NCBI RefSeq assembly: GCF_006345805.1
Contig: NW_021824629.1
Span: forward strand, 1-17,833
Direction: 5' to 3'
Length of the DNA: 17,833 bases
From: Octopus sinensis
Taxonomy: Eukaryota
Shown: one piece after another, positions 4,726-14,244 of the stretch
How positions within the stretch are numbered: the first letter of the stretch is position 1
How the letters are laid out: each line of letters begins with the position of its first letter
The notes under the pieces: model-generated
Database searches by the model: none
Told to the model about the DNA's origin: nothing
What the model saw: the letters and a program-made list of their open reading frames with translations, nothing else
Translations under genes and position numbers: made by a program

Positions 4726-4920
<195 letters not shown>

Positions 4921-5209
4921 GTTATCCGTAATAATGAAGGTGAAATTAATTAATTTGGAATAATTATCAATTACACCAAGTAGTCTTCGGCATGTAAAGC
5001 CTCATTCGAGGAAAATTTAAGTAATACTAAGCAATAAGGGTTTAGCAACGAATTGCCTTACCACATACCGAATTTAGAAATAGCAGTCAAAGGGTTATAG
5101 CTATTTCTTCTACTAAAAAGGGAGATCTCAGTAAAACAGCAATTGGAAGGCTGACACAAACAGGTAAGAGAGAATGAATGACTGCAATCTATCATACATT
5201 TTTAAGTTA

Positions 5210-5311
5210 TACGGATGCGTTTTCGAAATCAAGTTTTTAGGAAAGCATAATAATTAAATATTAAATATTAAATAATTCTATCTTACCGAAACTTCTTTTC
5301 TCTTCAGCGTA
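5210..5311 (-). ncRNA. hammerhead ribozyme, type I, degenerate copy
   Basis: Minus strand TACG-CTGAAGA-GAAA...TTTC-GAAA-ACGCATC-CGTA. Core boxes are present, but stem III is disrupted and stem I shortened relative to the copy at 5841. Confidence 0.65.
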
Positions 5312-5840
5312 GAATACTATATCATAATGATTATATATTGAATTTTGAGATACTAGGAGGCACCAACTCAACTCAGTATCAGAGCGAGCTAGAATCCGCA
5401 ACTAGTATCACCGAATTCAAATTTGTGAATGAACGATTGTGTCAACAGCCCCTTCCCACCCGCGGTGTAGCCAAAACAAGATGCTGTGGTCATCTACTGA
5501 GATAAAATATGGTTATCCGTAATAATGAAGGGTGAATTAATTAATTTGGAATAATATCAATTACACCAAGTAGTCTTCGGCATGTAAAGCCTCATTCGAG
5601 AGGAAATTTAAGTAATACTAAGCAATAAGGGTTTAGCAACGAATTGCTATTTTATCTCAGTAGATGACCACAGCATCTTGTTTTGGCTACACCGGGTGGG
5701 AAGGGGCTGTGACACAATCGTTTCATTCACAAATTTTGAATTCGGTGATACTAGTTGCGGATTCTAGCTCGCTCTGATACTGAGTTGAGTTGGTGCCTCC
5801 TAGTATCTCAAATTCAATATATAATCATTTATGATTATAG

Positions 5841-5948
5841 TATCTACGCTGAAGAGAAAAGAATTTTCGGTAAGATAGAATTATTTAATATTTATTTAAT
5901 TCTTATGCTTTCCTAAAAACTTGATTTCGAAACGTACGTCCGTAGATA
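5841..5948 (+). ncRNA. hammerhead ribozyme, minimal type I, intact
   Basis: Stem I TATCTACG (5841-5848) pairs with CGTAGATA (5941-5948). Core CTGAAGA 5849-5855. Stem II is closed by GAAA/TTTC (5856-5928). GAAA 5929-5932. Minimal stem III C-GTAC-G with palindromic loop. Cleavage triplet GTC 5938-5940. Confidence 0.88.
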
Positions 5949-6123
5949 ACTTAAAATGTATGATAGATTGCAGTCATTCATTCTCTCTTACCTGTTTGTG
6001 TCAGCCTTCAATTGCTGTTTTTACTGAGATCTCCCTTTTTAGTAGAAGAAATAGCTATAACCTTTGACTGCTATTTCTAAATTCGGTATGTGGGGCAATT
6101 CGTTGCTAAACCCTTATTGCTTA

Positions 6124-6124
<1 letters not shown>

Positions 6125-6177
<53 letters not shown>
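6125..6177. repeat. (TA)n microsatellite
   Basis: Read directly; right flank of the hammerhead element. Confidence 0.95.
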
Positions 6178-6500: not shown

Positions 6501-6665
6501 AATATTCTTTTCTACTCTAGGCATAAGGTCTGAAATTTATTGCGAGAGGGCCAGTTGATTAGATCGACCCCAGTACGCAACTGGTACTGAATTCATCGAC
6601 TCCGAAAGGATGAAAGGCAAAGTCGACCTCGGCAGAAATTGAACTCAGAACGGAGCGGCAGACGA
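6501..6665 (-). mobile_element. SINE, same family, lacking the A-box part
   Basis: GATCGACCCCAGTACGCAACTGGTAC...GGATGAAAGGCAAAGTCGACCTCGGCAGAAATTGAACTCAGAAC. Confidence 0.9.
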
Positions 6666-11689: not shown

Positions 11690-11890
11690 GAAATGAACAT
11701 ATGAGTGTGTGTGCGTATGTGTGTGAGCGGATATATCTATCTATGCATTTACACCCTCTCTTTCTCTCTCTCACACCCCTTCCCTCTTTCTCTCTTTGTT
11801 AATTCGATAGGAACTCTTGAGTAACTGACACACACGCACACACACACGCCTACACACACACACATATAATACATATATACATACATACTA
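11192..11890. repeat. extended low-complexity tract of (TA)/(TG)/(GA)/(CA)/(CT) microsatellites
   Basis: Read directly. Confidence 0.85.
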
Positions 11891-11891
11891 C

Positions 11892-12045
11892 GTGATTCTT
11901 TCAGTTTCCTTCTGTGAAATCCATTCAAAAGTATTTGGTTAACCCGAGCCTATCGTAGAAGACACTCGTCCAAGGTGCCACATAATGGGATTGAACCTGG
12001 AACCATGTGGTTGGGAGCAAACTTCATACCACACAGCCACACCCT
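11892..12045 (-). mobile_element. tRNA-derived CORE-type SINE, 5' half
   Basis: Reverse complement aligns to 12722-12887: TGGCTGTGTGGTA A box, GGTTCAATCCC B box, CORE-like CACCTTGGACGAGTG, and GGAAACTGAAAGAA. Confidence 0.85.
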
Positions 12046-12117
12046 CACCCGTGTATACAACATTAAAATCAACAAATATTTCGAAAGTCGTACAAATGTA
12101 AGTTACTACATTGAGAT

Positions 12118-12260
12118 GAGTTCAAGTGAATACGGGGTCGACTTTGCTTTTCGTCCTTCCGGGGTCGATAAACTAAGTACCAGTTACGCATTGGGGTCAA
12201 TGTAATCGACTCATCTCCTCCCACAAAATTTCGGGCTTTGTGCCTATAGTAGATAAATTA
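12118..12260 (+). mobile_element. SINE with Meta/MESC-like domain, 5'-truncated
   Basis: GGTCGACTTTGCTTTTCGTCCTTCCGGGGTCGATAAACTAAGTACCAGTTACGCA...AAATTTCGGGCTTTGTGCCTATAGTAGA. Confidence 0.88.
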
Positions 12261-12721: not shown

Positions 12722-12888
12722 AGGCGTAGGAGTGACTGTGTGGCAAGTAGCTTGCTTACCAAACACATGGTTCCGGGTTCAGTCTCACTGCGTGGCTCCT
12801 TGGGCAAGTGTTTTCTATTGTAACCTTGGGTCAACCAAATCCTAGTGAGTGGACTTGGTAGATGGAAACTGAAAGAAGCCCGTCGTAC
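12722..12888 (+). mobile_element. tRNA-derived CORE-type SINE, 5' half
   Basis: A-box-like TGACTGTGTGGCAAG, B-box-like GGTTCAGTCTC, CORE motif CCTTGGGCAAGTG; homologous to 11892-12045. Confidence 0.88.
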
Positions 12889-13237: not shown

Positions 13238-13288
13238 TTAGCTGTGGTAAATCAGTGCCGCTAGCGGTGGTGATGACAACAATAATCA

Positions 13289-13809
13289 TGATGATGATGA
13301 TGGCTAGGACGATGACGACAATGACGATGATAAGGATGATGGTGATGATGATGATGACGATGATGATGAGGAGGAGGAGGAGGCGGAGGAGGATAATGAT
13401 GATTATGATGATGATGATGGCTAGGACGATGACGACAATGACGATGATAAGGATGATGGTGATGATGATGATGACGATGATGATGAGGAGGAGGAGGAGG
13501 CGGAGGTGGATAATGATGATTATGATGATGATGATGGCTAGGACGATGACGACAATGACGATGATAAGGATGATGGTGATGATGATGATGGACGATGATG
13601 ATTAGGAGGAGGAGGAGGCGGAGGAGGATAATGATGATTATGATGATGATGATGGCTAGGACGATGACGACAATGACGATGATAAGGATGATGGTGATGA
13701 TGATGATGACGATTGAGGATGATGAGGAGAGGAGGCGGAGGAGGATAATGATGATGATGGATATGATGATGATTATGATGTGACGACAATGACGATGATA
13801 AGGATGATG

Positions 13810-13840
<31 letters not shown>

Positions 13841-14244
13841 ATGATGAGGAGGGAGGAGGAGGATGATGATGTCTCTGATGATGATGATGGCTAGGACGAT
13901 GACGACAATGACGATGATAAGGATATGGTTGATGATGATGATGACGGATGATGATGATGAGGAGGAGGAGGCGGAGGAGGATAATGATGATGATGATGAT
14001 GATGATGATTATGATGATGACGACAATGACGATGATAAGGATGATGGTGATGATGATGATGACGATGATGATGATGTGAGGAGGAGGAGGCGGAGGAGGA
14101 TAATGATGATTATGATGATGATGATGGCTAGGACGATGACGACAATGACGATGATAAGGATGATGGTGATGATGATGATGACGATGATGATGATGAGGAG
14201 GAGGAGGCGGAGGAGGATAATGATGATTTTGATGATGATGATGA
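13289..14244. repeat. ~117-bp minisatellite, about 8 units, built of GAT/GAC/GAG triplets
   Basis: Landmark GCTAGGAC at 13303, 13420, 13537, 13655, 13890 and 14127. Units near 13775 and 14010 lack it but keep GACGACAATGACGATGATAAGG. Confidence 0.95.

Follow-up and report, generated by a model that had tools for sequence, protein, structure and literature searches.

The window analysed here, a stretch of 17,833 nucleotides of Octopus sinensis contig NW_021824629.1, raises the question of whether a hammerhead-like motif at its positions 5841 to 5948 is a genuine ribozyme and, if so, what kind of element carries it. All letters of the motif lie where the original prediction had placed them. The two strands of stem I occupy 5841-5848 and 5941-5948, CTGAAGA occupies 5849-5855, 73 nt fill 5856-5928, and GAAA (5929-5932) precedes an A-U and a C-G pair closing GTAC and a GTC triplet ending at C5940, after which cleavage is predicted from the sequence. 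A search of the window finds the pattern once, and none of 200 shuffles of the window contains it; the motif is real and above chance. Its assignment as a type I hammerhead holds, with core elements CUGANGA, GAAA and NUH, three helices and an open helix I, and so does the proposed long imperfect helix II, which consists of 4 bp, a 2x2 loop and an AU-rich hairpin. The parts of the motif, which belongs to a repeat family designated A, are as follows.

5843-5848, plus strand: helix I 5' arm, 6-bp core; the extra upstream T of the family is absent after 5842
5849-5855, plus strand: catalytic core box 1, CUGAAGA
5856-5928, plus strand: extended helix II of 73 nt, compared with 76 nt in most copies of family A
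G5856-A5859/T5925-C5928, plus strand: base of helix II, 4 bp
A5860, G5861/G5923, A5924, plus strand: 2x2 internal loop of helix II, followed by the imperfect AU-rich hairpin
5929-5940, plus strand: core box 2 (GAAA) and helix III (A-U, C-G) on palindromic GUAC, including the 8-nt palindrome ACGUACGU
5941-5947, plus strand: helix I 3' arm and U1.7 (T5947), which is paired here and unpaired in the family

Comparison with other family-A copies contradicts the description of this copy as intact. Typical copies have one more T in the helix I 5' arm, which lies upstream and opens loop 1, and a G at 5864 in stem II. The loss of the T and the G-to-T change are each found in 1 of 103 copies, namely the window copy alone. 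The supposedly perfect 8-bp stem I results from the missing T, the family having 6 bp and a 2x2 internal loop, and the proposed TTTT/AAAA pairing in stem II uses the private T at 5864. Because 1-nt indels are frequent among the copies, the 1-nt deletion in the window may be an assembly error. In the predicted folds, the base of helix II has a probability of 0.05 in the window copy, compared with 0.97 in a typical copy. The core bases of the window copy pair with the 5' strand of stem II, U1.7 is paired, and the active form lies 3.8 kcal/mol above the minimum energy (1.1 kcal/mol in a typical copy). When the whole locus is read through, the motif is predicted to be buried in a long duplex. On these models, the window copy is likely an impaired family member.

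The typical copy is predicted to fold alone into a structure with helix I of 6 bp, a 2x2 loop and further pairs, and helix II of 4 bp, a 2x2 loop and a long extension; the probability of helix I is also 0.97. Among ten other folded copies, two of family B (7.4 and 14.2 kcal/mol) and one of family C (P 0.30) were unfavourable. The 6-bp helix I and the 4-bp helix II with G10.1-C11.1 are present in families A and C, whereas in family B the basal pair of helix II is mismatched. In place of a short terminal loop 2, there is the internal loop with its long extension. We designate the motif as canonical with an extended helix II, because PMC4209133, in its accessible part, defines the canonical metazoan form by helix dimensions (helix I of 6 bp, helix II of 4 bp, and helix III of 1-2 bp with a palindromic loop). 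The earlier label "minimal" is therefore replaced, the 2-bp helix III on a palindromic tetraloop being described as canonical metazoan type I in the accessible parts of PMC4209133 and PMC7229834. As had been suggested, the palindromic loop 3 appears able to dimerise: when a natural 753-nt tandem dimer is folded without constraints, the predicted minimum-energy structure is a double hammerhead with both cores open, and forcing an 8-bp helix III between the copies leaves the energy unchanged.

The conservation and covariation that had been named as a check are seen in the genomic copies. The core is invariant across families that are 7-40% apart, while the helices covary, and older scattered copies have the same core with different helix I sequences. 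Among 16 A/C representatives, 94% of the cells pair, 5 of 24 pairs change on both sides, and the covariation score is exceeded by 0 of 500 shuffles, a score that depends on five pairs in related rows from which the structure itself was derived. We also sorted 229 motif instances into 64 proximal types, of which 28 have at least 5/6 of helix I and at least 3/4 of helix II. U1.7 is found in 22 of these 28 well-paired types, an A just before the 3' strand of helix II in 22, and both in 19. U1.7 and the last A of loop 2 are described as Hoogsteen contact bases in the Schistosoma ribozyme (PMC11875169, accessible part). By analogy, we infer that the internal loop docks by this contact. According to a paper on therapeutic ribozymes, activity in trans can be inhibited when stem II carries extensions that contain internal loops.

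How common such long arms are was determined by counting exact patterns (core box 1, a spacer and GAAACGTACGT) in the genome, with the reversed pattern as a control. With stem II relaxed, as had been proposed, spacers of 67-95 nt (GTC required) gave 1,861 matches and the control gave 0; spacers of 39-66 nt and 8-38 nt gave 679 and 3,618 matches, respectively, with 4 control matches each. Approximately 6,150 motifs have a helix II of 24-95 nt genome-wide, and only 26 have spacers of at most 22 nt, many of these being deletion copies. A long helix II is the rule in this genome. Several groups of matches were discarded: many of the 41 with spacers of 96-125 nt are an upstream CTGANGA inside family-B units, 37 GTC matches are mostly 1-nt-deleted copies of the family with a GUU site, and 16 in viral contigs, with a helix I of 0-1 bp, were rejected as chance. 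Eight viral contigs (L186, L187, L194, L195, L197-L199 and L201) have a 77-nt pattern match without helix I in common, which is probably a conserved coding stretch.

The expectation that searches with a capped stem II miss the motif proved correct. The Rfam Hammerhead_1 model (RF00163) aligns to 5842-5947 with a 69-nt insertion and scores 21.9 bits (E 0.0042 in a 241-nt search), below the cut-off of 34. No Rfam hammerhead reached the cut-off in five loci holding the window motif and related motifs, and none is among the 150 listed of the 199 matches in a scan of the whole window. The microRNA matches of that scan were set aside as hairpin or repeat noise; the top match corresponds to the inverted junction of an insertion described below. 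The min-HHR descriptor in the supplement of PMC4209133 has a gaaaNNuh core without helix III, a helix II of at most 7 bp and a loop 2 of at most 10 nt; the window motif lies outside it and cannot be found by it because of the limits on helix II and its loop. In the accessible parts of published work, a "long" hammerhead helix II is one of 6-8 bp. Thousands of hammerheads in one animal genome thus lie below the Rfam cut-off and outside the published descriptor, and hammerhead censuses are likely too low because the length of helix II hides such motifs.

A DNA search of the octopus genome (2.72 Gb) returned 1,341 candidates, and the 40 scored, apart from the window itself, are 95-96% identical. 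In 30 fetched loci, the motif lies in a head-to-tail unit. The 27 monomers obtained (22 distinct) are 593-604 nt long, and the distinct ones are 0-6 substitutions from the majority sequence. The helix II lengths of family A cluster at 69-70, 74-76 and 81-83 nt, and the steps come from a 7-nt AT-rich word that is repeated towards the apex. Family C, 7-14% from family A, has a unit of 577-586 nt and a helix II of 60-61 nt. The sister family B, about 40% from A, has a unit of 531-561 nt, a helix II of 24-31 nt and a GUU site; the 100 listed of the 3,618 matches with 8-38-nt spacers look like this family. Two further groups were noticed. Family D (L180, L202-L205) has a unit of ~500 nt, 102-105 nt between the core boxes, a helix I two bases out of register in 5/5 copies, and a two-site 3' region in common with family A (70%). 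In an old family E (L177, L181, L206-L210 and L094), the core boxes are 64-114 nt apart and helix I has 4-5 bp.

Tandem non-coding units that each hold a type I hammerhead are the mark of non-LTR retrozymes, and this is the arrangement found. Circular monomers of A, A-83, C and B are predicted to be strongly self-paired (fold z of -8.2, -7.2, -4.0 and -8.6, respectively, from 25 shuffles each), and their GC content (0.33-0.36) is below the 50% bound for retrozymes. No ORF linked to the unit was found in the hammerhead loci, and loci L001-L100 gave a single weak protein match (E 1.5e-4). The motif belongs to a retrozyme family that is young and high in copy number, and whose hammerhead is canonical but has an atypically long arm. 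In line with the earlier supposition, literature searches on octopus or cephalopod hammerheads, extended stem II and retrozymes gave no description of this multi-copy family; the supplement of PMC7229834 may show a similar motif, and the unit may be catalogued without its ribozyme in Repbase or Dfam. The giant squid genome paper gives 235 Rfam hammerhead hits without detail.

The tandem unit of ~600 nt and its Penelope-type insertion ends were overlooked in the original prediction, whose proposed link to Penelope-like elements is supported. The window holds an inverted insertion, both arms of which run into (TA)n.

4813-4920, no strand: (TA)n target microsatellite, left flank
4916-5647, minus strand: inverted arm of 732 nt (1.2 units), read from 5647 to 4916; 3' end at site 2, ~300 nt past the cleavage site
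4916-5023, minus strand: "tail" of ~105 nt between site 1 and site 2, only at the end of the inverted arm
5207-5313, minus strand: another copy of the hammerhead, with a damaged loop 3 that has lost its palindrome and a damaged helix I 3' arm
5648-6127, plus strand: plus arm, which covers 480 nt of the ~600-nt unit, contains a single hammerhead and has its 3' end ~195 nt past the cleavage site, at site 1
6125-6177, no strand: (TA)n target microsatellite, right flank

The two hammerheads of the window lie on opposite strands and therefore cannot form a dimer within one transcript. Elsewhere in the window, there are two pairs of inverted dispersed repeats of 76-77% identity (6508-6647 with 12117-12256, and 11886-12014 with 12759-12887), which are probably SINE-like copies, a stretch at 2376-2675 on the minus strand that reads like the end of a LINE frame, and a 957-nt (ATG)n-based compound microsatellite at 13288-14244 with a higher-order period of about 117 nt.

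The same ends recur throughout the families. Among 87 3' ends surveyed at 58 A/C loci, 80 run into (TA)n, 50 of the ends being at site 1 and 26 at site 2, which are ~100 nt apart. Inverted loci with both ends in TA number 25, and 20 of them combine site 1 with site 2; in one both arms end at site 1, and in four one end is off-site. Single-orientation loci end at site 1 in 25 of 27 cases, and six loci are unclassified. Family B (26 loci) uses homologous sites, with site 1 and site 2 combined in 11 of 12 inverted loci; its single-orientation loci end at site 2 in seven cases and site 1 in four, although a second arm may lie outside the fetched stretch. The stretch with both sites is the region most alike between A and B (65-70%). 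The 5' truncation, inverted 5' copy, one-end tail and microsatellite target correspond to the insertion anatomy of Penelope-like elements.

The arrays reach 14.6 head-to-tail units without an ORF and start at arbitrary phases. One of 8,759 nt, flanked by TA at either end, contains 13 units that were measured; they are 1.0 substitution apart and have 13-15 differences from the majority in common; at another locus, the arms are 6.2 and 5.3 kb long and end at sites 1 and 2. Divergence is 0.38% within arrays compared with 2.2% between loci. This homogeneity fits copying round one circular template, and it also fits read-through or later amplification.

Four sequencing runs compared with the window consist of assembled contigs. 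In one of them, low-depth contigs (depth 3-9) over window positions 5296-5414, in the minus arm, show A>G at 5342, 5352, 5355, 5358, 5366, 5370, 5381 and 5414 and T>C at 5296 and 5297, letters seen in none of ~110-126 genomic copies at those places. They hint at A-to-I hyper-editing on both repeat strands, the RNA nature of the contigs being a guess and their origin perhaps another species.

Our preferred reading, to which we give a probability of roughly 70%, is that the motif is the type I hammerhead of a young non-LTR retrozyme of ~600 nt, the transcripts of which are predicted to self-cleave, are likely circularised and are likely copied into (TA)n by the proteins of a Penelope-like element, the window copy being predicted to be impaired. 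Tandem arrays would be transcribed, and neighbouring hammerheads would pair their ACGUACGU palindromes into a shared 8-bp helix III; the dimer is predicted to cut after GUC and release monomers of ~600 nt. The 2x2 internal loop past the first 4 bp of helix II would replace loop 2, its last A contacting U1.7, and the distal hairpin would therefore be a tolerated appendage that grows by 7-nt slippage. By analogy with the retrozymes of other animals, the monomer would be ligated to a highly self-paired circle. A Penelope-type RT/GIY-YIG protein may then nick (TA)n and start cDNA internally at site 1, one of the observed ends, and priming of the other strand at site 2 would produce inverted insertions. 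An RT going round the template would yield multi-unit arrays. PMC7229834 reports that non-LTR retrozymes are expressed as circles and proposes a Penelope-like helper, and 10.64898/2026.07.22.740005 reports that in vertebrates retrozymes co-occur with Penelope elements and are homologous to pLTRs. PMC8557442 lists inverted 5' copies, microsatellite targets and a tail confined to a single end as Penelope traits, and in vitro work on a Penelope element equates the tail with the interval separating two internal positions at which RT starts, which are used on both target strands (PMC11167929). Against this mechanism, only one of nine tested Xenopus retrozyme dimers cleaved in vitro (10.64898/2026.07.22.740005), and the tail here is ~100 nt, compared with 30-40 nt in described Penelope elements.

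Candidate helpers are present in the same genome. A GIY-YIG search gave 5,029 candidates, of which 150 were scored and 55 loci were fetched. Young elements, L123 among them, have an intact 781-aa RT + GIY-YIG frame with a CX4CXXC linker of the Neptune/Nematis kind and end in (TA)n at two points 40 nt apart, and minimal hammerhead variants lie near the end of autonomous elements (one by pattern match, others by eye). No homology to unit A was found by blastn in the 55 endonuclease loci, some of which overlap, and local alignment of six of their 3' regions with the unit, judged against shuffles, gave none. A strong family-B match at L116 proved to be a neighbouring insertion. Because 0 of 55 loci share unit A sequence, only their target and insertion anatomy make these elements candidate helpers; no RT + GIY-YIG ORF joined to the repeat was found in the loci examined. 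Among these loci, a young Neptune-type Penelope (L123:1374-5077, L127 and L130) has a separate 479-aa upstream frame overlapping the RT-endonuclease frame (possible frameshift), a 3' region of ~1.1 kb with internal repeats and, in L130, a pseudo-LTR of ~600 nt. In the 3' regions of L122, L123, L128, L104, L115 and L119, minimal hammerhead variants, mostly recognised by eye, lie 65-150 nt upstream of the (TA)n end; their cores are altered (CCGAAGA, or U at 3 combined with A at 8), and their palindromes are CAUG, GUAC and CCGG.

Whether the hammerhead and the circle are needed at all can be questioned. Penelope machinery might move the unit from unprocessed multimeric transcripts, with cleavage rare or protein-assisted and the circle unneeded, and the insertion ends ~195 and ~300 nt from the cleavage site, none being at it, speak for such a route. 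So do the results on an anole Penelope hammerhead, whose cleavage needed protein and whose mutation left insertion of the element unaffected (PMC11167929), and multi-unit copies could also come from read-through of an existing homogeneous array. However, families that have diverged retain the core, the palindrome and the tertiary nucleotides, which argues for selection on the active fold, the circular monomers are predicted to be strongly self-paired, and each array has its own set of common variants. We therefore regard movement without processing as rather unlikely.

It is less probable still that an autonomous Penelope-like element supplied the unit as its pseudo-LTR and left the arrays as truncated remains. 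The insertion anatomy is Penelope-like, 24 of 57 Xenopus families of vertebrate retrozymes show homology to pLTRs (10.64898/2026.07.22.740005), and the loci examined are 55 of the 5,029 endonuclease candidates. Yet the longest arrays are free of ORFs, the only protein match in loci L001-L100 is the weak one, and the autonomous elements of this genome bear minimal hammerheads, which are of another type. A satellite model, proposed in the accessible part of 10.64898/2026.07.22.740005, would have monomers insert singly and arrays arise by later DNA-level amplification, with the long helix II as a neutral by-product; unequal crossover also gives near-identical units within an array. We consider it very improbable, as both arms of an inverted insertion can be multi-unit with fixed 3' ends in TA and the arrays start at arbitrary phases.

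Beyond the preferred retrozyme reading, we tentatively entertain a broader possibility, which we think is somewhat doubtful: a lineage-wide class of long-arm hammerheads (helix II of 24-110 nt, docking by an internal loop 2) may drive several circular-RNA retrozyme families, the insertion ends would be direct genomic evidence of a Penelope protein copying the circle by priming at two internal sites on both target strands, and the arm would be a selected folding or protein-binding domain. If true, those families are invisible to current searches and the extended arm is no passenger. The natural helix II series (24, 60, 70, 76 and 83 nt) provides material for testing an internal loop as loop 2, a question that matters to the design of ribozyme switches. 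As one genome contains both a young family and candidate helpers with intact frames, mobilisation can be tested directly, and the two-site, one-per-arm ends bear on which retroelement mobilises animal retrozymes, and how.

Among known systems, as described in the accessible parts of the papers cited, the metazoan non-LTR retrozymes of coral, mussel and axolotl (PMC7229834; vertebrate survey in 10.64898/2026.07.22.740005) share with this family the non-coding tandem units of low GC content, one type I hammerhead per unit with a 6-bp helix I, a 4-bp helix II and a 2-bp helix III on a palindromic tetraloop, the self-paired predicted circle, and coexistence with Penelope elements bearing minimal hammerheads. 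In contrast, helix II here continues past an internal loop for 24-95 nt (~100-114 in old copies), the unit is 530-600 nt long compared with 170-400 nt in the invertebrate retrozymes tested, and those descriptions mention no 3' ends fixed at two sites, no inverted arms and no targeting of (TA)n. The Neptune/Naiad-type (TA)n inserters and the anole Poseidon (PMC8557442, PMC11167929) show the same 5' truncation, inverted 5' copy, one-end tail, microsatellite target and internal RT start at two sites, whereas the unit has no ORF, a tail of ~100 nt instead of 30-40 nt, a canonical rather than minimal hammerhead, and no sequence homology to the autonomous elements examined. The minimal hammerheads of Penelope pLTRs (PMC4209133) are likewise of type I with a palindromic loop 3 and a dimer-dependent design, but they have no or one extra helix III pair, a helix II of at most 7-8 bp with a short loop, and a short helix I without loop 1, in contrast to the extended, internally looped helices I and II of this family. 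The discontinuous Clec2 hammerhead (reviewed in PMC6155905), a natural ribozyme, also has its core boxes held apart by a long insertion. It is, however, a type III motif with 150-1500 nt inserted in helix I and lies in a single-copy mammalian 3' UTR, whereas the octopus family is type I, has its insertion in helix II and exists in thousands of mobile copies.
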